A stretch of 64,000 nucleotides of DNA from an uncultured Candidatus Saccharibacteria bacterium (lineage in GTDB: Bacteria; Patescibacteriota; Saccharimonadia; Saccharimonadales; UBA4665). Every line of letters begins with the position of its first letter. Positions within the stretch are counted from its first letter, which is position 1. Positions 646 through 32,895 of this stretch are shown piece after piece. The stretch covers positions 26,087-90,086 of the forward strand of contig CAZHYW010000003.1 of the NCBI GenBank assembly GCA_964537115.1. The letters are read 5' to 3'. The translations under genes and the position numbers were made by a program. Below the pieces are notes generated by a model. The model made no database searches. It had not been told where the DNA came from and saw nothing but the letters and a program-made list of their open reading frames with translations.

Positions 646-2625
646 CTACAACAGAGCGGCCTTAATTCTCCGAATGCCAGCGCTGGACGATTCCTCTTTG
701 GTAATCTTGAAGCGTTTGCCGTCTTCGGCCAGCCGCATGGTGTGGTCCACGTGCGGGCCACCACAAATCTCAAAGCTAAATGGCTTGGTCGCGCCGTCGG
801 CAATCATTTTGTACACCTTCACGGTGTCGCCGTAACGGTCGCCAAAGGCACCCAGGGCACCCATTTCTTCGCGGGCCACTTTGGTGGGGTACTCTTGAAA
901 ACTCACCTTGAGGTCTTTTTGAATCTGCTCGTTCACAATGTCTTCCACCCGCTTAATCTGCTCAGGCGTCAGCTTATCTGGATGGCTAAAGTCGAACCGC
1001 AACCGCTCCTCGGTGATGTTCGACCCATGCTGAACCACGTGGTCGCCCAACACCTCGCGCAGCGCCTGGTACATCAGGTGTGTAGCCGTGTGGTACTTTT
1101 TGTGCTGCAAAGTCTGGCCACCCAAACCACCCTTAAACGTACCCTTCGCCGCCGTCTGGCTCCGTGCCCGCTGCTCAGCCATTTTGGCATCGAACTGTGC
1201 TTGCCAATCGGCGCTTAGCTCAATGCCACGCCTGAAAGCCTCTTCCACGCTCAGTTCCACCGGGAACCCATAGGTGTCGTACAGCGTAAACAAGTCCTCA
1301 CCGTGAGTCGTCATCTTGAGCGGAGCGCTAGCGGAGTCGAAAGATCCCGCCATGTTCACTTCGGGCTGACGAGATTCCTCGGCTTCACTCGGAATGACAC
1401 TACTGCCAAAAAGTCTGTCAAACTCTTTCAAGCCCTTACGAAGTGTCTGACGGAAGACCTTTTCTTCCTTCACGAGTACTTCCACGACCTTGTCACGGTT
1501 AGCTTTCACTTCAGGATAGTCGGCTTCATACATGTCAGCAATCACGGGTACCACCTGCTCCACAAAGTTCTGCTCCACACCCAGGTCAAAGGCAAACCGA
1601 ATCGCCCGGCGCATCAGCCGGCGCATGACATACCCCTGCTCTTTGTTACTCGGCACCACACCGTCCACCGCCAAAAAGGCTGCGCTGCGCAGGTGGTCGG
1701 CAATCACGCGCATAGAGTTGGTGTTAGCGTCGTAGCGTTTACCAGAGATTTGCTCCAGCTTCTCCACGATAGGCCACATGATGCTAATTTTGAACAGATC
1801 GGGCGTGTCGATAGCCGCCATAGCGATCCGCTCCAGCCCACCTCCAAAGTCGATGTTATTCTTTGGCAGCGGCTCAAAACCTGCTTCCCGCCGTACGTAT
1901 TGCATGAGCACATTGTTACCAATTTCTACAAACTGGCCGCAATCGCAGTTAGGGTGACACTTTGGCCCGTAAGCCGTATCGTGTGGTACACCATCAAACT
2001 TATAAAACAACTCAGTCGAGGGCCCGCCCGGCTCGCCAACGGGCATGTCTTCAATCTTGCCGTTCCGGCACCACCAGTTTGGCTTGCCGGTGTAGAAAAA
2101 TATGCGCTCACCCGGCTGCATGCCGCGTTCTGTCGCCTGTTTTTCACTGCCCAGATCAGCGCGCTTGGTCTCTATGCCTTTACCGGCAAACAGCTTGGCC
2201 CAAATGTCAGCGCTCTCGTTGTCCTTGGGGATGTGCCTATCGTCGTCACCCATAAAACAAGTTATATACAACTTGCTGGGGTCGAGCCCCACCACATCAG
2301 TGTAAAACTCGAAAATCCACGGCAGCTGCTCGGCTTTAAAGTAGTCACCCAGGCTCCAGTTACCCAGCATCTCAAAGAACGTGTCGTGACGGTTGTCGCC
2401 GACCTCCTCGATGTCTTGCGCACGCAGACATGTTTGGCTATCCACCAGCCGCACACCGTCTTGGTGTGGCTCACCCAGCAGATACGGAATGAGCGGCTGC
2501 ATGCCACTGCCCGTAAACAACGTAGTGGGGTCGTTTTGCGGCACCAGCAGCGCCCGCGGGATGCGCTTGTGGCCCCGCTCTTCAAAAAACTTTAGGTAAG
2601 CATTACGAATGTCTTGTGCATTCAT
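646..2625 (-). CDS. alaS: Alanine--tRNA ligase, short form lacking the C-terminal C-Ala/DHHA1 domain
   Basis: Class II AlaRS N-terminus (MNAQDIRNAYLKFFEERGHKRIP) and editing-domain motifs, ending shortly after ICGGPHV...GIRRIKA. I chose the ATG at 2625 rather than the upstream TTG at 2700. Confidence 0.95.
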   Translation of the reverse strand: MNAQDIRNAYLKFFEERGHKRIPRALLVPQNDPTTLFTGSGMQPLIPYLLGEPHQDGVRLVDSQTCLRAQDIEEVGDNRHDTFFEMLGNWSLGDYFKAEQLPWIFEFYTDVVGLDPSKLYITCFMGDDDRHIPKDNESADIWAKLFAGKGIETKRADLGSEKQATERGMQPGERIFFYTGKPNWWCRNGKIEDMPVGEPGGPSTELFYKFDGVPHDTAYGPKCHPNCDCGQFVEIGNNVLMQYVRREAGFEPLPKNNIDFGGGLERIAMAAIDTPDLFKISIMWPIVEKLEQISGKRYDANTNSMRVIADHLRSAAFLAVDGVVPSNKEQGYVMRRLMRRAIRFAFDLGVEQNFVEQVVPVIADMYEADYPEVKANRDKVVEVLVKEEKVFRQTLRKGLKEFDRLFGSSVIPSEAEESRQPEVNMAGSFDSASAPLKMTTHGEDLFTLYDTYGFPVELSVEEAFRRGIELSADWQAQFDAKMAEQRARSQTAAKGTFKGGLGGQTLQHKKYHTATHLMYQALREVLGDHVVQHGSNITEERLRFDFSHPDKLTPEQIKRVEDIVNEQIQKDLKVSFQEYPTKVAREEMGALGAFGDRYGDTVKVYKMIADGATKPFSFEICGGPHVDHTMRLAEDGKRFKITKEESSSAGIRRIKAALL

Positions 2626-2655
2626 GGTTTGCTTCTTGCCCTTTCCGTTGGTACT

Positions 2656-2800
2656 AAAAAACTCGTTCGTACCAAACACTTTAAAATTAGTGTTTAGCAA
2701 GAACGAGGCTTTCTCGTGTTACCATCTTGCTTTCGTCGCCATATCGCTATGGCCGACCTCGGCGACTGGCTCTTCTACCAGTCTCTCCATTTTACGGTCG
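2656..2800 (-). promoter_or_regulatory. T-box-like riboswitch leader of alaS (antiterminator/terminator switch)
   Basis: RNA-sense AGCAAGA-[UGGUAAC bulge]-ACGAG-AAAGC-CUCGU-UCUUGCU (2731-2696) has canonical T-box antiterminator geometry. The competing helix CUCGUUC (2707-2701)/GAACGAG (2668-2662) is followed by U6 (2661-2656). The upstream helix pair CGACC/GGUCG and GACUGG/CCAGUC leaves GCC (2763-2761) in an internal loop. Confidence 0.65.
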
Positions 2801-6089: not shown

Positions 6090-7063
6090 ACCGTAGGCGT
6101 CACGCCGTTAACCACGAACTGGTCGGAACCGGTCGTTAGCACATTTATGACGCTCTGCACCGCCATGTCGCTCGTTGACTCCAGCATAGTACGGGTGTTG
6201 AAGCCAGCGTTAGTGTTGGTGGAGTACCAGCTGGCAAGCGGCAACTGCTCAAACCGTTTCTCATGCATCCCGCCGCCTACGTCATAAGCCGCACGGGCCT
6301 GTTGGTTCGCAATACGCTCGTACAACGCATCCAGGTCAAAACCGTCCCGGCCGCCCGTGTTTATGCAAAGTACACTGTTTTTAGTGACATTTAGCAGCTC
6401 CCGCGTGATGACGGTACCGGCTTGAGTGGAGGTATGGTTGGAGATAATATCGCAGGTTTTGCAGAGCTCTTCTAGACTCACATATGCAATACCGAGCTCG
6501 GTTTCCAGCTGTGGTTTACGGGTACGGTTCCAGTAGACTACCTCGCCCACACCGAGCCCCAGCAGTAGCCGCGTAACGCGCTCACCGATTCGCCCTATGC
6601 CCACTATGCCTACACGTACATCGGCCAAACTCGGTACGGTCATAAACTTGGCGTGGCCTAGGCCGCCCAGTTCAAAGATATGGCGCTGCATAATGAGGAT
6701 GAGCGTAAGCGTGAATTCGGCAACTGCAAAAGTGGTTGTACCCGGTGTATTGGTAATGGCAATGCCCCGCTGCGTAATAGCCGTATGGCCGGGTATAAAA
6801 TGCGCCCAGTCGGCGCCCGTAAAAGCGATGGCCTTCATAGCTGGGTCAAGGCTATTTGCCACGGTGGTAGTAACGGCTTCTTCGCCACCAATAATATACC
6901 CCGCTTTCCCTTTAAGAGCCGCTATGAGCTCGGCTTCCGAGGGATGGGCTTTGGTAAGTCGTTCCACCTTGAAGCCAGCCGCACGTAATGCAGCTTCGTG
7001 CTCGGGGAAAATAAATAGCGTATCGGTTACCAAGATCGTGCCCTTGGCTGTCTGTCTACTCAT
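6086..7063 (-). CDS. D-isomer-specific 2-hydroxyacid dehydrogenase family, NAD-binding
   Basis: Rossmann motif GIVGIGRIGERV and a family-typical layout. Confidence 0.85.
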   Translation of the reverse strand: MSRQTAKGTILVTDTLFIFPEHEAALRAAGFKVERLTKAHPSEAELIAALKGKAGYIIGGEEAVTTTVANSLDPAMKAIAFTGADWAHFIPGHTAITQRGIAITNTPGTTTFAVAEFTLTLILIMQRHIFELGGLGHAKFMTVPSLADVRVGIVGIGRIGERVTRLLLGLGVGEVVYWNRTRKPQLETELGIAYVSLEELCKTCDIISNHTSTQAGTVITRELLNVTKNSVLCINTGGRDGFDLDALYERIANQQARAAYDVGGGMHEKRFEQLPLASWYSTNTNAGFNTRTMLESTSDMAVQSVINVLTTGSDQFVVNGVTPTV

Positions 7064-24115: not shown

Positions 24116-24748
24116 ATGTGCTCTAAGATGTCTCGTCTGTCGTCGCGGCTTTGGTCTTTTGTGCCTACTTCGTTCGAAACGTGGTGCGTACTGTTTGTGT
24201 CGCTCGCCATCGTGGCACTGGGGAACGCCCAGATTATATTGGCACGCTTTGGGTTAGTACAGTCTTCCGAACTGGTGCAAGCCAGATTAGGACATGGTGT
24301 TACGAGCGGCCTGACTAAGCTCGACTCGTTCACCATTACCCAAACGGCCGCAACGTTTCTAGTGTGGGCCGGTATTGGGCTAGTAGCCTTTAGCTTTGTG
24401 TACGCTGTGCTGCGTACGTCGGAGCGCATAGAGTACCGCAAAGCTCTCAGCTCTAACGAATACATTCATCCCGCCGCTTTTAACCGTGCCAGCTTTATGC
24501 GAACGGCTATTACCGGCGCACTGTTGTCGTTTACCACTCTGGTGCTCTTTTTGGCCGGCACAGCCCTGTATCTGCATTATGTTATGCCAAGTAGTTTTGT
24601 GCATATTCGACGGTTCTTACTACTAGACCCTAGCCTAAGCCATTTTGGCTCGCTTTGCCTAGGCGCTATGGCCCTGTTTGCCGGCACATACGTACTATAT
24701 GCACTAGGCAGGCTAACAGTGTGGTCCCACCGCACCCACCGCATTTAA
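24116..24748 (+). CDS. Hypothetical integral membrane protein
   Basis: 210-aa ORF with 4-5 hydrophobic segments. Confidence 0.55.
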   Translation: MCSKMSRLSSRLWSFVPTSFETWCVLFVSLAIVALGNAQIILARFGLVQSSELVQARLGHGVTSGLTKLDSFTITQTAATFLVWAGIGLVAFSFVYAVLRTSERIEYRKALSSNEYIHPAAFNRASFMRTAITGALLSFTTLVLFLAGTALYLHYVMPSSFVHIRRFLLLDPSLSHFGSLCLGAMALFAGTYVLYALGRLTVWSHRTHRI

Positions 24749-24841
24749 CCCCCTGGAAATTGCTGTACTCATCTGTTATACTCGTCCTGTTCGCATTTAA
24801 TTTGGGGCTCCCAGCCGCAAAGCGACTTGAAGCCCTGGGAA

Positions 24842-24973
24842 AAGAGCAGCCGGACAAAATCTATTCGATTTTGCCCGCGCGATGATAGATGAACCGAAGG
24901 TAAATCTATATGCAGAGCCGGAGTATTTGTCTGTGCGAAGCTATATAAAAACCGTAGGTTTGTCTCATTACCC
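24842..24973 (+). repeat. Modular intergenic repeat, long form (copy A), directly upstream of tRNA-Ala
   Basis: AAGAGCAGCCGGA-[CAAAATC-TATTC-GATTTTG]-CCCGCGCGATG, followed by a 67-nt module that is near-identical to 31545-31611. Confidence 0.85.
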
Positions 24974-24978
24974 GACGC

Positions 24979-25055
24979 GGGGACGTAGCTCAGTTGATTA
25001 GAGCGCCTGCATGGCATGCAGGAGGTCGTGGGTTTGAATCCCGTCGTCTCCACCA
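24979..25055 (+). tRNA. tRNA-Ala(GGC), CCA encoded
   Basis: Cloverleaf folded by hand. Acceptor GGGGACG/CGTCTCC has G3:U70, the anticodon loop is AUGGCAU, the T-loop is TTTGAAT and the discriminator is A. Confidence 0.92.
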
Positions 25056-25095
25056 AAGAAAATACCGGTCACACTATGCGACCGGTATTTTCTTT
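25056..25095. terminator. Strong bidirectional terminator
   Basis: Perfect 16-bp stem AAAGAAAATACCGGTC/GACCGGTATTTTCTTT with a 9-nt loop and A/T runs on both sides. Confidence 0.85.
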
Positions 25096-25120
25096 GGTGT
25101 TTGGATAAAAGATCAGTGGG

Positions 25121-25458
25121 GTGGGTAAGTAGCGGGCGTCGGTGGTGGATGAGGTGGGTGGGGTTCGAGGTGGGACGCGCGGTGGACGCGGCTGCATGTT
25201 GCATATCGCTGCCGCGCCCACCAATCGTGCGTCCGGTTCTTGGCACTCGTCACCGAGCGACCAACTCCCCGGTAAACTGGTCGTCCCCCTCGCTGTAGGC
25301 GAGACGGTCGTTCCTCCGACTTCCAAAGAGGAAGCAGAGAGCACTGACGATAATGTACATGGGCCTCTCCCACTCGCCTAACGTGCGCCGAAACGCACGA
25401 GGTGTAACACGGAACGCTGGAGGCGTCCGCGGTGGTACGTGTGTAGCTACTTACCCGT
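25121..25458. ncRNA. Candidate structured RNA of unknown class (strand unresolved)
   Basis: About 335 nt, GC-rich, with only overlapping low-quality ORFs. An 11-bp perfect long-range helix pairs GGGTAAGTAGC (25123-25133) with GCTACTTACCC (25446-25456). There are several nested internal helices. Confidence 0.4.
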
Positions 25459-30022: not shown

Positions 30023-30051
30023 AAAAAAGCACTATCCGGAATGGATAATGC
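30023..30051 (-). terminator. tmRNA terminator
   Basis: Minus strand GCATTATCC-ATTCC-GGATAGTGC followed by TTTTTTGTTTTG. Confidence 0.7.
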
Positions 30052-30056
30052 TCATT

Positions 30057-30430
30057 TGGTGGAGCTGCCGGGTACTGCCCCCGGGTCCGTCGGCGTTTTC
30101 GCTAGTCGTCTACAGGCTTAGTCTGTTTTAAAAGTCTTAGCGCATGGGTATCGAAACATACAAACAGTCCATGCGAGCAATCCTGGTCTTAGCGGTCGGA
30201 TTGAATAGGTCCGTCCGAGCAATCAGAAATATAGAACGCTTATTCGCTATCTGATGTCGCAAAGGCGTTTCCGTGGCAACTAGGCTACGGAGAATGCGAG
30301 CTGAGGTGCCTTAAAGACACTAGCTACGCGGTTCCAAACTTTTGCAGTTATTGGATTTTGCCTATATCGCTGACAAGCGACCTGCTGATCTAGCGGTAAC
30401 GTACCAACGTCGAGCTTAAAATTCAGCCCC
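30057..30430 (-). ncRNA. ssrA: tmRNA (SsrA), 374 nt
   Basis: 5' GGGGCUGAAUUUUAAGCUCGACG... and 3' ...GGACCCGGGGGCAGUACCCGGCAGCUCCACCA. The acceptor carries G3:U70. Candidate tag frame: AKVWNRVASVFKAPQLAFSVA* (30345-30280). Confidence 0.85.
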
Positions 30431-30514
30431 TTGTCGTCGGTAATGGGACAAACCTACGGTTTTTCCCATCGCGCGGGGCGGCGAAATGAATTCGCCGTCT
30501 CCGGCTGCTCTTTT
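30431..30514 (-). repeat. Modular intergenic repeat, short form (copy 2), forming the tmRNA 5' leader
   Basis: 30467-30512 is identical to 593-638. Hairpin ATGGGA..AAACC-GTA-GGTTT..TCCCAT lies at 30443-30469. Confidence 0.85.
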
Positions 30515-30604
30515 CCCTTCGCCCGCGGCAAACCGCAAACCATTTGAAAATTAGAGCTACCTGGTACAGATGTGCATAAGGGTACAATACCCCTACAATC
30601 GCCT

Positions 30605-30634
30605 ATTATAGCATAACTACAAGCACTTTGTCTA
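30605..30634 (-). promoter_or_regulatory. Candidate ssrA promoter overlapping the ksgA stop codon
   Basis: TAGACA-18 nt-(TGC)TATAAT on the minus strand, with an extended -10. It implies a leader of about 165 nt. Confidence 0.5.
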
Positions 30635-31432
30635 GCTCTTGCCGGCAGCCCGATACAAAGCGTACCAGTCATCAAGTGAGAGGGCTTGGGCGCGGGTGGA
30701 TTCGGGTATGTTGGCGGTGGTGAGCAAAGTGCGGGCTTCATCCTTGGGGATGGCCAGGCCACCGCTGAGCGAATTGACGAGCGTTTTGCGTTTTTGGCTA
30801 AAGCCGGCCTTTACCAGGCGGAAGAACTGTTTGGTGTCGACACCCTCGAACAGCGGCTTGGCGCGGTACGTAAGAACCAGCACCTGGCTGTCGACTTTGG
30901 GCGGTGGTGTAAACAATTTGGCCGGTACCTCTAGGCCCAGTGACACCTCGCAGTAATACTGCGCGCTCACACTCAAAATGGACATGTCACCGGGGCGGGC
31001 CGCCACCCGCTGTGCCACTTCTTTCTGGATGAGGATGGCGGCTTGGCTAAACGGGTTGGAGCTTTCACAGAGTACGCGGATGAGGTTGCTCGTGAGGTAA
31101 TACGGGATGTTCGCCACCACTTTGTAACCGGTTGGCAATGCGGTAAGGTCGAACTGCAAGATGTCTTGCTGCACCACTGTTAGGTTGCCGCCTAAAGGAC
31201 TGTCCTTTAGGCTCAAGTTTGATAAGTCTTCGGCAAGACGTACATCGAACTCTACGGCCGTTACATGAGCACCGCGAGCTAGCAGTTGGCGTGTGAGTGT
31301 GCCTAGGCCTGGACCAATTTCGAGTACGTTGTCGCTAGCGCCAACTGCGACGCTGTCGCAAATAGCCTGCAGCGTCTTTTCATCGTGCAGCCAATGCTGC
31401 CCTAAGGCCTTCTTCGGAACAATATCACTCAT
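30632..31432 (-). CDS. rsmA: 16S rRNA (adenine1518/1519-N6)-dimethyltransferase
   Basis: KKALGQHWL..., SAM motif LEIGPGLGTLT and NIPYY. Confidence 0.93.
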   Translation of the reverse strand: MSDIVPKKALGQHWLHDEKTLQAICDSVAVGASDNVLEIGPGLGTLTRQLLARGAHVTAVEFDVRLAEDLSNLSLKDSPLGGNLTVVQQDILQFDLTALPTGYKVVANIPYYLTSNLIRVLCESSNPFSQAAILIQKEVAQRVAARPGDMSILSVSAQYYCEVSLGLEVPAKLFTPPPKVDSQVLVLTYRAKPLFEGVDTKQFFRLVKAGFSQKRKTLVNSLSGGLAIPKDEARTLLTTANIPESTRAQALSLDDWYALYRAAGKS

Positions 31433-31478
31433 TCCCCTGATACTACCAAGTCCGGCGCTACTTTACTACTGGCCTGGA

Positions 31479-31611
31479 AAGAGCAGCCCGAGTCGGCGGA
31501 TTCATTCCGTTGGCCCCGCGCGTTAGCTCGAGCGAAGCGAGAGATATATGCAGAGCCGGAGTATTTGTCCGCGCGAAGCTATATGAGAGAACCTAGGTTC
31601 TCTCATTACCC
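31479..31611 (+). repeat. Modular intergenic repeat, long form (copy B), antisense to the flanking genes
   Basis: AAGAGCAGCCCGA-[CGGCGGA-TTCAT-TCCGTTG, paired via G-U]-GCCCCGCGCG..., then a module matching 24907-24973. It includes the perfect hairpin ATGAGAGAACC-TA-GGTTCTCTCAT (31583-31606). Confidence 0.85.
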
Positions 31612-32895
31612 CTACCAGTTATGGTGTACCGTCCAGTAATTGTAGGCGCCCGCCCAGCTACCGTAGCGTGCATTTGCATAGCCCGTAGCCCAACGAATTT
31701 GTGTTACGGCGCTGGTCGCCCAGTCGCTACCTGCCGATGCCATTTTACTGCCTGGCGTTGCTTGGAAGATGCCGTAGCCACCGTGTGCCGGGACATCGCT
31801 CGGGCTCATATACCCTGGGCAGGCATGAGTCCCCTGGATCTTAGTGGGGCACCAGCCGCCTTCGTGGCTGGCAATGTAGTCAACGTACTTGTAATCACTC
31901 TCGGCGATACCGGCCTGACGCATTACCGCCTGTTTGTCGGCTGGTATGCTCACCGCCTGACCCCGTGCGACCACTTCCGCCACCGGCTGCACCGTAACCA
32001 CTGTTTGCAGCAAGGTACGGCTTGTCTCGACACCGTTTACCGTGTTCACTTGGTACGTCAGTACCTGTGCGCCGGCACTACCCTGCTGGCGGACGGCCGT
32101 GGTACCAAAGGTAAGCGACGTATCGAGCACGGCCTGGATGGGCGCGGGGATGGTTTGTGTGACGGTTTCTATGCGCGTACCTTTGCGGCTCACGAATACT
32201 TGCAGGCCTGGGGTAATGGGCGTGCTCAGTGCCGGCGTAACAGTATCGGCCGCAGTCAGTTTAATACGCTCGCTGCCCAGCAGGTCTTTGACAGTTGTAG
32301 CGTGGGTACGCAGGGACAGCAGTGTGCCGTAATCGTTCAAATTTACCGGTACCGACCGTTCGATGTTTATGTGCTCACCGACCGACTGCTCGGAGGCTAG
32401 GTTCTCGGCTGGCGCGGCCGTTACAAAGTCTTCGGCATACAGCGCTATACCCGCGTCGGTTACCATACTGCGCGGCGTGGCAGCCGCACTGTAGGCGGTG
32501 GTTGTAGTGGTGCCATCACTAATAGTAACTGGCACTGCTCGGTAAACGTTTACACGAAAATTGTCCTGCACAATAGCTGTAGTTAGGCTGGGTTCTACGC
32601 GGTCACGTACGCCGATGTGAATGTTTAGCTTGTGGAGCAGCGCGCCAACTGTGGGCTCATTGGTAGGCACCGTTTGAACGGCATGGTCATGCGAAATAAT
32701 AACAATATAGCTGGTATCGGGCCGAAAAGTAGCCGTATGGTGGGTCGCAAACAGCAAGTAAAGCAAGCCACCGCTTACCGCTAGCAGGCCCAGAAATGCG
32801 GCAATCGGCAAACCGAGGGGGTGCCGACGTAGGCGATGAAACCGCCGAACGTGCGCTTTGGCAGAGGGCTGTATTTTGCTATGGATTTTTTGCAT
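31612..32895 (-). CDS. RpfB/YabE-like cell-wall protein (N-terminal TM, DUF348 repeats, G5 domain, C-terminal transglycosylase-like domain)
   Basis: The domain order was recognised by eye. The C-terminus reads SHEGGW...GGYGIFQ. The position upstream of ksgA mirrors rpfB-ksgA and yabE-ksgA synteny. Confidence 0.7.
   Translation of the reverse strand: MQKIHSKIQPSAKAHVRRFHRLRRHPLGLPIAAFLGLLAVSGGLLYLLFATHHTATFRPDTSYIVIISHDHAVQTVPTNEPTVGALLHKLNIHIGVRDRVEPSLTTAIVQDNFRVNVYRAVPVTISDGTTTTTAYSAAATPRSMVTDAGIALYAEDFVTAAPAENLASEQSVGEHINIERSVPVNLNDYGTLLSLRTHATTVKDLLGSERIKLTAADTVTPALSTPITPGLQVFVSRKGTRIETVTQTIPAPIQAVLDTSLTFGTTAVRQQGSAGAQVLTYQVNTVNGVETSRTLLQTVVTVQPVAEVVARGQAVSIPADKQAVMRQAGIAESDYKYVDYIASHEGGWCPTKIQGTHACPGYMSPSDVPAHGGYGIFQATPGSKMASAGSDWATSAVTQIRWATGYANARYGSWAGAYNYWTVHHNW

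Follow-up and report, generated by a model that had tools for sequence, protein, structure and literature searches.

The DNA under study is a 64,000-nt stretch of contig CAZHYW010000003.1 from an uncultured Candidatus Saccharibacteria bacterium, referred to throughout as the window, and it carries a tRNA-Ala(GGC) gene and a transfer-messenger RNA (tmRNA) gene, ssrA, that are preceded by the same 26-nt block. An earlier note on the window described this block, and its two copies, AAAAACCGTAGGTTTGTCTCATTACC and AAAAACCGTAGGTTTGTCCCATTACC, identical at 25 of 26 positions, lie where the note put them and at the distances from the mature RNAs that it gave. The letters also bear out a G3:U70 pair in both acceptor stems (GGGGACG/CGUCUCC in tRNA-Ala, GGGGCUG/CAGCUCC in tmRNA), and both the AAACC-GTA-GGTTT hairpin of the block and the ATGGGA/TCCCAT outer helix of the tmRNA copy are present and appear in the minimum free energy (MFE) fold. 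The block is the 3′ part of a larger structured element, named M, that recurs across many Saccharibacteria species. The two blocks and the genes that follow them are placed as follows.

24947..24972, plus strand: 26-nt block on the tRNA-Ala side, formed by hairpin P3 of the second unit of M copy 2 and the UUACC tail, ending 6 nt before tRNA-Ala
24979..25055, plus strand: tRNA-Ala(GGC), downstream of copy 2 (ARAGORN; Rfam tRNA, 62.8 bits)
30439..30464, minus strand: 26-nt block on the tmRNA side, formed by the distal part of P3 of M copy 3 and the UUACC tail, ending 8 nt before tmRNA
30057..30430, minus strand: tmRNA (ssrA), downstream of copy 3 (Rfam RF00023, 58.4 bits against a gathering score of 47, E 2.6e-20)

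Chance similarity between the two 26-mers is ruled out: a search of the window allowing up to three mismatches returns these two sites only, and 100 dinucleotide-preserving shuffles return none. The shared stretch reaches further 5′ in both leaders, where GGGAAAAGAGCAGCCGGA is followed by a hairpin of differing sequence and then by CCCGCGCGATG; the tRNA-Ala leader has an additional module of 61 nt ahead of the 26-mer. The 26-mer is the P3 hairpin and closing tail of M, an element of ~80 nt with three helices, P1, P2 and P3. The earlier note had allowed that the block might be part of a repeat, and this alternative is borne out, since the 26-mer belongs to an interspersed element. M is without a match in Rfam 15. 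A covariance model, R1, finds exactly four copies in the window, scoring 90, 80, 46 and 31 bits.

30439..30520, minus strand: M copy 3, canonical, in the tmRNA leader (R1 90 bits, E 9e-26; MFE z −3.3)
Parts of copy 3, minus strand: 5′ strand GGGAAAAGAGCA; P1 30505-30501/30476-30471; P2 30497-30491/30485-30479; P3 30469-30458/30454-30443; tail UUACC
24834..24972, plus strand: M copy 2, composite, in the tRNA-Ala leader (R1 45.6-46.6 bits)
24837-24911, plus strand: unit 1 of copy 2, with GGGAAAAGAGCA, P1/P2, CCCGCGCG and its own P3-like hairpin at 24884-24911
24912-24972, plus strand: unit 2 of copy 2, degenerate, with GCAGAGCCGGAG...GUGCGAAGC and P3
564..646, minus strand: M copy 1, canonical, beginning at the alaS stop codon (R1 80.1 bits)
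31471..31610, plus strand: M copy 4, composite (R1 30.8 bits), with a separate P3 match at 31583-31606 and repeats D1 and I1

The MFE fold of copy 3 yields P1, P2 and P3. Copy 1 is identical to copy 3 in P1/P2 and differs in P3 (AACCUGC-UU-GCAGGU), and the repeat that covers it, D2, spans 51 nt at 98% identity. The 61-nt inner module, repeat D1, is common to copies 2 and 4, and the P3 of copy 4 is a perfect palindrome. Copies 1 and 4 have no RNA gene downstream. Copy 4 is antisense to both neighbours (identified by Pfam): a G5/DUF348 RpfB-like gene (31612-32895, minus strand), whose stop borders it on one side, and ksgA/rsmA (30632-31432, minus strand), whose start borders it on the other. Its site and orientation recur at loci L036, L078, L092 and L096 of the survey described below. 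None of the four window copies is flanked by duplications. The gene directly preceding copy 1 encodes alanyl-tRNA synthetase (alaS; Pfam; 646-2700, minus strand), which is a coincidence; locus L033 has M at the same site.

Read 5′ to 3′, the consensus of M opens with the single-stranded segment rGGAAAAGAGCA, continues with P1 (GCCGG/CCG-c-GC) closed around the P2 hairpin and with CCCGCGCG, and ends in P3 (AUGAGA-A-AAACC...GGUUU-G-UCUCAU, with a conserved A.G mismatch). A UUACC tail is frequent, and in MFE folds its CC(C) pairs back to the 5′ GG(G) as a short closing pairing. R1 was built from A2, an alignment of 66 copies. All three helices covary, with 95-97% of cells paired. In the pair counts, the paired share is 95.4% against 74.9% after shuffling, and double-change cells number 406 against 110, with neither observed value reached in any of 500 shuffles; the signal collapses when the helix partners are slid. 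Because P1 is fixed by the pattern used to find the copies, it was tested on an independent set chosen by the 26-mer and P3 alone, in which it is 100% paired and shows exchanges of CG to UA or AU, CG to GC and GC to AU. The helices also appear when the window copies are folded for MFE, with z values of −2.5 to −3.3. The 5′ A-run varies in length with the A-U tract of P3, a possible sign of a tertiary contact. Discrete P2 sequences ("alleles", such as CAAAATGTATTCCATTTTG) recur unchanged across many species at unrelated loci, and P2 identity is slightly higher within genomes (0.70) than between them (0.60).

The wider survey covered one genome per species, 185,579 species in all, with the pattern AAGAGCAGCCSGA-N17-27-CCCGCGCG, which matched at least 119 stretches. 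L numbers denote loci among the matches listed, and counts for reference genomes rest on the window and 80 such loci, so they are lower bounds. About two thirds of the matches listed are metagenome-assembled genomes (MAGs) of Candidatus Saccharibacteria/Saccharimonadales in which the element is complete down to its 3′ hairpin; the remainder are chance matches in high-GC coding sequence that lack this hairpin. R1 gives 96 matches in the window and the 80 loci, or 94 once two weak reverse-strand matches overlapping real copies are set aside. A further 37 matches come from metagenome contigs, which brings the total beyond the window to at least about 125 copies. M is an interspersed structured repeat of many Saccharibacteria (TM7) MAGs that belong to different species. 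Judged by this element, and not by a taxonomic marker, the window is almost certainly saccharibacterial.

Among the 94 listed copies, 14 are followed by a tRNA gene (Ala, Ser, Asn, Pro, Leu, Val, Lys, Met or Asp), always in sense orientation and with the tRNA starting 3-14 nt after P3. Two precede tmRNA (window copy 3 and L112), three lie within the 23S-5S spacer, 10 nt before 5S rRNA, four are inside 23S rRNA genes and six are inside a cobalamin-riboswitch match, with the rest between protein genes. The downstream neighbour is on the same strand for 60 of these copies and on the opposite strand for 29. In metagenomes from JGI, the exact 26-mer occurs in 28 contigs, 19 of which have a tRNA at +2 to +8 (Gly, Lys, Met, Arg, Asn, Pro or Val). 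Both sets together place tRNAs of at least 12 specificities 2-14 nt downstream of M, and 33 of 33 such copies are sense, an outcome with a chance of about 1e-6 were the overall 2:1 ratio to apply. The earlier note had held that its leader idea would give way to a plain dispersed repeat if most copies were not followed by RNA genes, and only about 20% of the 94 precede a stable-RNA gene, so by that measure the dispersed repeat wins. The repeat is nonetheless strongly structured and non-randomly placed at tRNA 5′ ends, and the 26-mer is a frequent tRNA-leader module, not an alanine one. The note had also held that its idea would fail if relatives lacked the block before ssrA and tRNA-Ala. Some relatives keep it: M precedes tRNA-Ala(GGC) in L044 and L047 and ssrA in L112. 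The tmRNA of L089 has no R1 match upstream. Protein genes downstream of M include groEL, ssb, rplJ, rplK and rplL, and the neighbours of M are housekeeping genes.

Several copies lie within structured RNAs. The 23S rRNA gene of L105 (minus strand) has inserts at 800-935 and 250-330 that are largely M; one, of 133 nt, falls at position ~284 of the large-subunit (LSU) rRNA model and the other after ~583, in the helix-25 region, both at helix tips. Two further copies are inside the LSU gene of L087 (plus strand), at 1037-1116 and 1559-1638. The inserts of L105 and L087 have the placement expected of an intervening sequence (IVS), at the tip of a 23S helix. Of 66 rRNA insertions reported in Saccharibacteria, 64 are short (≤250 bp) and uncharacterised, have neither an intron nor a homing endonuclease, and occupy IVS-like sites (PMC11270868). 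At least some of them are probably explained by M. At L074, positions 2309-2512 match the cobalamin-riboswitch aptamer (RF00174, 31.7 bits against a gathering score of 31.5), and M occupies a variable hairpin at its periphery, with GCAACGGUAA on one side and the B12-box region on the other, as it also does in L004, L015, L016, L097 and L103. In six species M sits in this loop in sense orientation; in L012, L134 and L141 it is antisense there. In the 23S-5S spacers of L065 (600-860), L088 (1600-1854) and L090 (210-466), the upstream flank of M pairs with the linker and the first 5S bases, with predicted duplex energies of −22 to −28 kcal/mol and z values of −3 to −4, and the modelled duplex looks like a processing stem that bridges M.

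A different arrangement recurs in the leaders of protein genes. Upstream of groEL, ssb, rplL and rplK, a Shine-Dalgarno (SD)-like GAAAGGAG and UUCGC stand ~30 nt before M, and AAUA-GCGAAG-CGGAAAUUAU-AUG follows it (L027, L043, L045, L075, L094, L100, L109, L116 and L118, which include groEL, rplK, ssb, rplL and other genes). The downstream AAUAGCGAAGCGGAAAUUAU-AUG in these loci is without an SD of its own. The UUCGC and GCGAA flanks can pair, and L094 has a compensating variant, UGCUU/GAAGCA; judged from the letters, such pairing would bring SD and AUG to normal spacing with M between them. As a general property of the element, a flank-formed closing helix is not supported: the mean z is −0.4, and significant values are confined to the 5S copies and a few further loci.

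Promoter candidates lie upstream of both leader copies in the window and terminator hairpins lie downstream of both RNA genes.

24754..24782, plus strand: predicted sigma-70-like promoter for tRNA-Ala, TGGAAA-17-TATACT with TG, ending 51 nt upstream of copy 2 (24834)
30605..30634, minus strand: predicted sigma-70-like promoter for ssrA, TAGACA-18-TATAAT with TG, 11/12 consensus, ~85 nt upstream of copy 3
25051..25099, plus strand: intrinsic-terminator hairpin 3′ of tRNA-Ala, inverted repeat I9 with 23-nt arms that are 96% complementary
30027..30053, minus strand: predicted intrinsic-terminator hairpin 3′ of tmRNA

Extended -10 boxes (TGnTAnAAT) stand 12-110 nt upstream of M, at variable distance; 25% of copies have one in the 130 nt before them, compared with 7.7% of control positions. 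M thus appears to be transcribed leader or spacer RNA, from predicted start sites, and not a promoter, because the -10 boxes are upstream of it, it lies inside 23S rRNA, a riboswitch and the 23S-5S spacer, and its TAGGTT segment covaries. A boxA-like UGCUCUUU is on the strand antisense to M, which is the wrong strand for tRNA, tmRNA and rRNA/5S leaders; the boxA consensus UGCUCUUUAACAA was not found on the transcribed leader strand.

Some features of the RNA genes themselves deserve mention. The tmRNA at 30057-30430 (minus strand) is missed by ARAGORN, its RF00023 score is just 11 bits over the threshold, and its T-arm analogue is CCGGGGGCAGUACCCGG, where a GGGUUCGAAUCCC-type loop is usual. 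Directly 3′ of the tRNA-Ala terminator lies a G-rich stretch (25100-25200, plus strand) with repeated GGTGG/GGTGGG runs. Another tRNA gene of the window, at 54412-54502 (plus strand), is 91 nt long and is called Arg(UCU) (ARAGORN; Rfam tRNA, 46 bits), with a long variable arm; this class II shape is typical of Ser, Leu and Tyr tRNAs and odd for an Arg anticodon, and a relative's locus, L127, has an ordinary class I tRNA-Arg(UCU). The covariance-model scan finds no M at the 54412 tRNA.

Several features of the listed copies bear on how M comes to occupy its sites. About 14 of the 94 (~15%) are flanked by direct duplications of 13-62 nt in an X-M-X arrangement; duplications of at least 13 nt occur in 2 of 470 controls (~0.4%). 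The duplicated X is typically the 3′ end of lepA, pcrA/uvrD or rpsF and overlaps the start region of the next gene. Cases with duplicates of 34-62 nt, which involve lepA, pcrA/uvrD, rpsF or an XerC-like gene, are seen in L082 (~6540-6710, minus strand), L030 (6680-6870), L089 (1760-1990), L071 (2500-2680), L046 (4050-4210) and L102 (380-580); in L046 and L071 the duplicate runs into the first ~12 nt of M. At the lepA site, L030 and L082, whose LepA proteins are 86% identical, share the duplicated 43-nt flank, and the M that it encloses belongs to a different subfamily in each; within each genome the duplicates agree at 43 of 43 positions. An X-M-X-M-X array occupies positions 1-330 of L019, with the lepA 3′ end, M of subfamily 1, a copy of the lepA end, M of subfamily 2 and a partial third lepA end in succession. 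Head-to-head pairs of M are found in L010 and L012, and tandem or degenerate composites in L096 and L132 as well as in window copies 2 and 4. A filled/empty contrast exists at ssrA, which has M upstream in the window and L112 and lacks it in L089. A reading of the duplicated gene ends as template and variable repeats of a diversity-generating retroelement (DGR) was rejected, because the duplicates do not differ at adenines specifically and housekeeping genes are the targets.

We consider M to be, with a probability of roughly 60%, a structured insertion module comparable to repetitive extragenic palindromic (REP) sequences, miniature inverted-repeat transposable elements (MITEs) and IVSs, possibly co-opted where it lies in leaders. 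Turnover or spread at the DNA level is suggested because the flank duplications are long, subfamilies are swapped at one site, either orientation is found in the riboswitch loop, and composites and presence/absence differences exist. Both leader copies in the window would be transcribed within the 5′ leader from the predicted promoter-like sites 50-85 nt upstream. RNase P cleaves the 5′ leaders of precursors, and M would presumably be removed with the leader as the enzyme matures tRNA-Ala and tmRNA. The element may persist where its compact, self-closing fold is harmless, namely in leaders, spacers and the apical loops of rRNA and riboswitch helices, and selection may retain only the sense orientation immediately 5′ of stable-RNA genes. 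The block is common to tRNA-Ala and tmRNA because both leaders contain the same repeat family, not because both accept alanine. Co-option of M, for example as a processing or stability module, is possible.

A number of observations weigh against the insertion module. No transposase or other mobilising enzyme is found among the neighbours of the ~94 listed copies, and M has no clear terminal inverted repeats (a weak GGGAA/UUACC complementarity is seen in some copies only) and no short target duplication of fixed length, the lengths varying from 13 to 62 nt. Carriage by phage was considered and rejected, the single viral-contig match being a chance match in high-GC coding sequence without P3. 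The unpaired segments are near-invariant across species of 36-57% GC, and the same orthologous sites are occupied in several species (rpsF-ssb, groES-groEL, rplJ, rplL, rplK, lepA, pcrA, alaS and rpfB-like-ksgA). Saccharibacteria genomes are ~1 Mb and quick to shed useless DNA; the near-invariant single strands and orthologous sites in genomes of this size therefore argue for purifying selection, that is, for function. All tRNA-adjacent copies are sense and tight against the mature 5′ end, and subfamily tails track context, with AAUAGCGAAGCGG before start codons and the exact 26-mer before tRNA in the 19 of 28 contigs given above. The strand test is only weakly informative (30 G-U/U-G against 18 A-C/C-A).

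One rival explanation makes the block a recognition or processing signal of alanine-accepting RNAs only, linked to G3:U70, alanyl-tRNA synthetase (AlaRS) or a special RNase P mode for tRNA-Ala and tmRNA, and within the window the 26-mer does precede exactly the two G3:U70 RNAs; moreover, the tRNA-Ala(GGC) orthologues of L044 and L047 and the ssrA of L112 carry M, and a third window copy follows alaS. The distribution of the exact 26-mer refutes this reading, to which we attach next to no credence, as it stands before tRNA-Gly, Lys, Met, Arg, Asn, Pro and Val; other copies of M precede tRNA-Ser, tRNA-Leu, tRNA-Asp, 5S rRNA and many mRNAs, the ssrA of L089 is without M, and AlaRS acts on mature acceptor stems, not on leaders. 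The alanine link is a coincidence, and what stands of the conserved-leader idea is that the block lies in a predicted transcribed 5′ leader, with extended -10 boxes upstream; its connection to alanine acceptance and G3:U70 falls away. It is also very improbable that M or its 26-mer is a DNA-level site, such as a promoter, an UP element or a transcription-factor site of highly expressed genes. M does lie just upstream of such genes, TAGGTT in the P3 loop region is -10-like and TAGGTTTG resembles a Bacteroidota-type -7 motif. The TAGGTT part of P3, however, is unconserved, covaries and varies in length among copies, so that hexamers of sigma-70 or Bacteroidota type at fixed spacing are not found for TAGGTT(TG). 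The extended -10 boxes stand upstream of M at variable distances, M also lies antisense between co-directional genes, and the compensatory changes already described point to selection on a single-stranded fold; TAGGTT or TAnnTTTG as a promoter is rejected on the covariation of the segment and the copies inside rRNA and the riboswitch.

A serious rival, which we hold to be possible though not probable, is that M is no selfish DNA and instead a dedicated cis-acting RNA domain, a three-way junction in the leaders and spacers of transcripts for the translation apparatus and of other highly expressed transcripts. Such a domain could admit or block a nuclease of RNA maturation (RNase III, J, Y or Z), stabilise the 5′ end, act against termination or against Rho, bind a protein particular to the lineage or cleave itself as a ribozyme, and the released M-containing leader could act in trans. 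The near-invariant single strands and covarying helices fit this proposal, as do the 33 of 33 sense copies 2-14 nt from mature tRNA 5′ ends and the enrichment of M beside tRNA, tmRNA, 5S, rplJ/K/L, rpsF-ssb, groES-groEL, lepA, alaS and ksgA, with orthologous sites in many species. Its retention in ~1-Mb genomes, the correlation between the 5′ A-run and the P3 A-U tract, and the context-specific tails and flanks, such as the SD-like motif and the UUCGC upstream that pairs with GCGAA downstream, are likewise in its favour. A general role is harder to reconcile with the roughly one third of copies that are antisense to their neighbours, the presence of both orientations in the same riboswitch loop and the minority of tRNA genes that carry M, the window tRNA at 54412 and the L089 tmRNA being without it. 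The long flank duplications and the subfamily replacement at one site look like DNA-level insertion, M is without an expression platform or a known partner, and the flank-formed closing helix is not general. The two readings, insertion module and RNA function, do not exclude each other. At about the same probability as this rival, M might be more than tolerated junk and one of two new things: a lineage-specific functional three-way-junction domain that punctuates or tags transcripts of the translation apparatus, or a new small mobile element homing into hairpin loops and gene ends. A nuclease or RNA-binding protein devoted to it would read the former, or it would cleave itself, in tRNA, tmRNA, 5S, 23S, r-protein, chaperone and ssb leader transcripts; the latter would make target duplications of 40-60 bp with no transposase adjacent.

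Known systems resemble M in part. A permissive Rfam 15 scan (E≤10) returns nothing in 30400-30750, and in 24600-25200 only the tRNA reaches its gathering score, six other matches at 25007-25099 being far below theirs; at gathering thresholds, the whole window yields two tRNAs and the tmRNA only. Comparison by eye shows that none of the hammerhead, twister, HDV-like, hairpin-ribozyme, k-turn and T-loop/minihelix patterns fits the core; AUGAGA/UCUCAU, for instance, is a covarying helix, and P2 has UUYAY loops, not UUCRA. A full-text search of the literature for Saccharibacteria RNA motifs, for repeats and for the sequence string found no description of M; the nearest published statement is the survey of rRNA insertions cited above (PMC11270868).

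REP sequences and their mosaic clusters (BIMEs) in Enterobacteria and Pseudomonas, including the REPINs mobilised by RAYT, are short, structured, extragenic and transcribed, and occur in tens of copies or more, as M does. They too are found in both orientations, in head-to-head pairs and at gene ends, with some orthologous sites kept, and they can affect mRNA ends. M shows the many extragenic copies, both orientations and alternating clusters that characterise this class (four copies in 64 kb, the 60/29 strand split and the L010 and L012 pairs). A REP, however, is a species-specific palindrome of 20-40 nt with a GTAG head, whereas M is ~80 nt long, has two hairpin domains with invariant single strands and no GTAG head, and is conserved in sequence across many species of 36-57% GC. 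No RAYT-like gene is seen adjoining the ~94 copies, the flank duplications of M are long (13-62 nt), and M lies 5′ of tRNA genes and inside rRNA and riboswitch loops. Bacterial MITEs, such as the Correia elements of Neisseria, the Rickettsia palindromic elements and the pneumococcal BOX and RUP, are likewise non-autonomous structured insertions that are co-transcribed with their neighbours, form nested or composite copies, differ in presence and absence between genomes and are tolerated inside functional RNAs. Rickettsia palindromic elements occur in genes, including ssrA. M differs from MITEs in that it is without clear terminal inverted repeats, a short fixed target duplication and a parent insertion sequence (IS), is conserved far deeper and is strictly sense next to tRNA genes.

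The IVSs of 23S rRNA, which are excised by RNase III, share with M the insertion into apical loops of 23S helices, including the helix-25 region; the classical sites are helices 9, 25 and 45. M is found outside rRNA as well (leaders, spacers, a riboswitch), and it is built of three helices, not of one long stem. Ordinary 5′ leaders of pre-tRNA and pre-tmRNA, which RNase P removes, and RNAs derived from leaders or spacers, such as the 3′ETS-leuZ sponge, are comparable in that M lies between a predicted promoter and the mature 5′ end and would be released as a leader fragment; ordinary leaders are short, unstructured and unconserved between genes, whereas M is an ~80-nt covarying fold across many tRNA leaders. 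Structured inserts between SD and start codon of the kind in phage T4 gene 38 are similar in that M, in the groEL, ssb, rplL and rplK leaders, has an SD-like sequence upstream, an AUG downstream and flanks that, as predicted from the letters, pair. Antitermination RNAs (HK022 put, rrn boxB-boxA) also lie in leaders of rRNA and tRNA transcripts, but the boxA-like UGCUCUUU of M is on the antisense strand only. Interspersed structured repeats are already known; what is unusual in M is its conservation across species, its long duplications and its use of tRNA leaders and structured-RNA loops.

These results replace the idea of an alanine-specific leader with a concrete ~80-nt covarying three-helix element that is present in many Saccharibacteria species. 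tRNA leaders, rRNA helices and a riboswitch all tolerate one and the same fold, and the unusually long flank duplications point to an undescribed mechanism of insertion or turnover in very small genomes. A covariance model of M would aid annotation in the candidate phyla radiation (CPR), where it would bear on leaders, rRNA boundaries and false open reading frames that end in M, and M could mark the lineage. Should it prove functional, it would offer a handle on how RNA maturation is organised in these epibionts.

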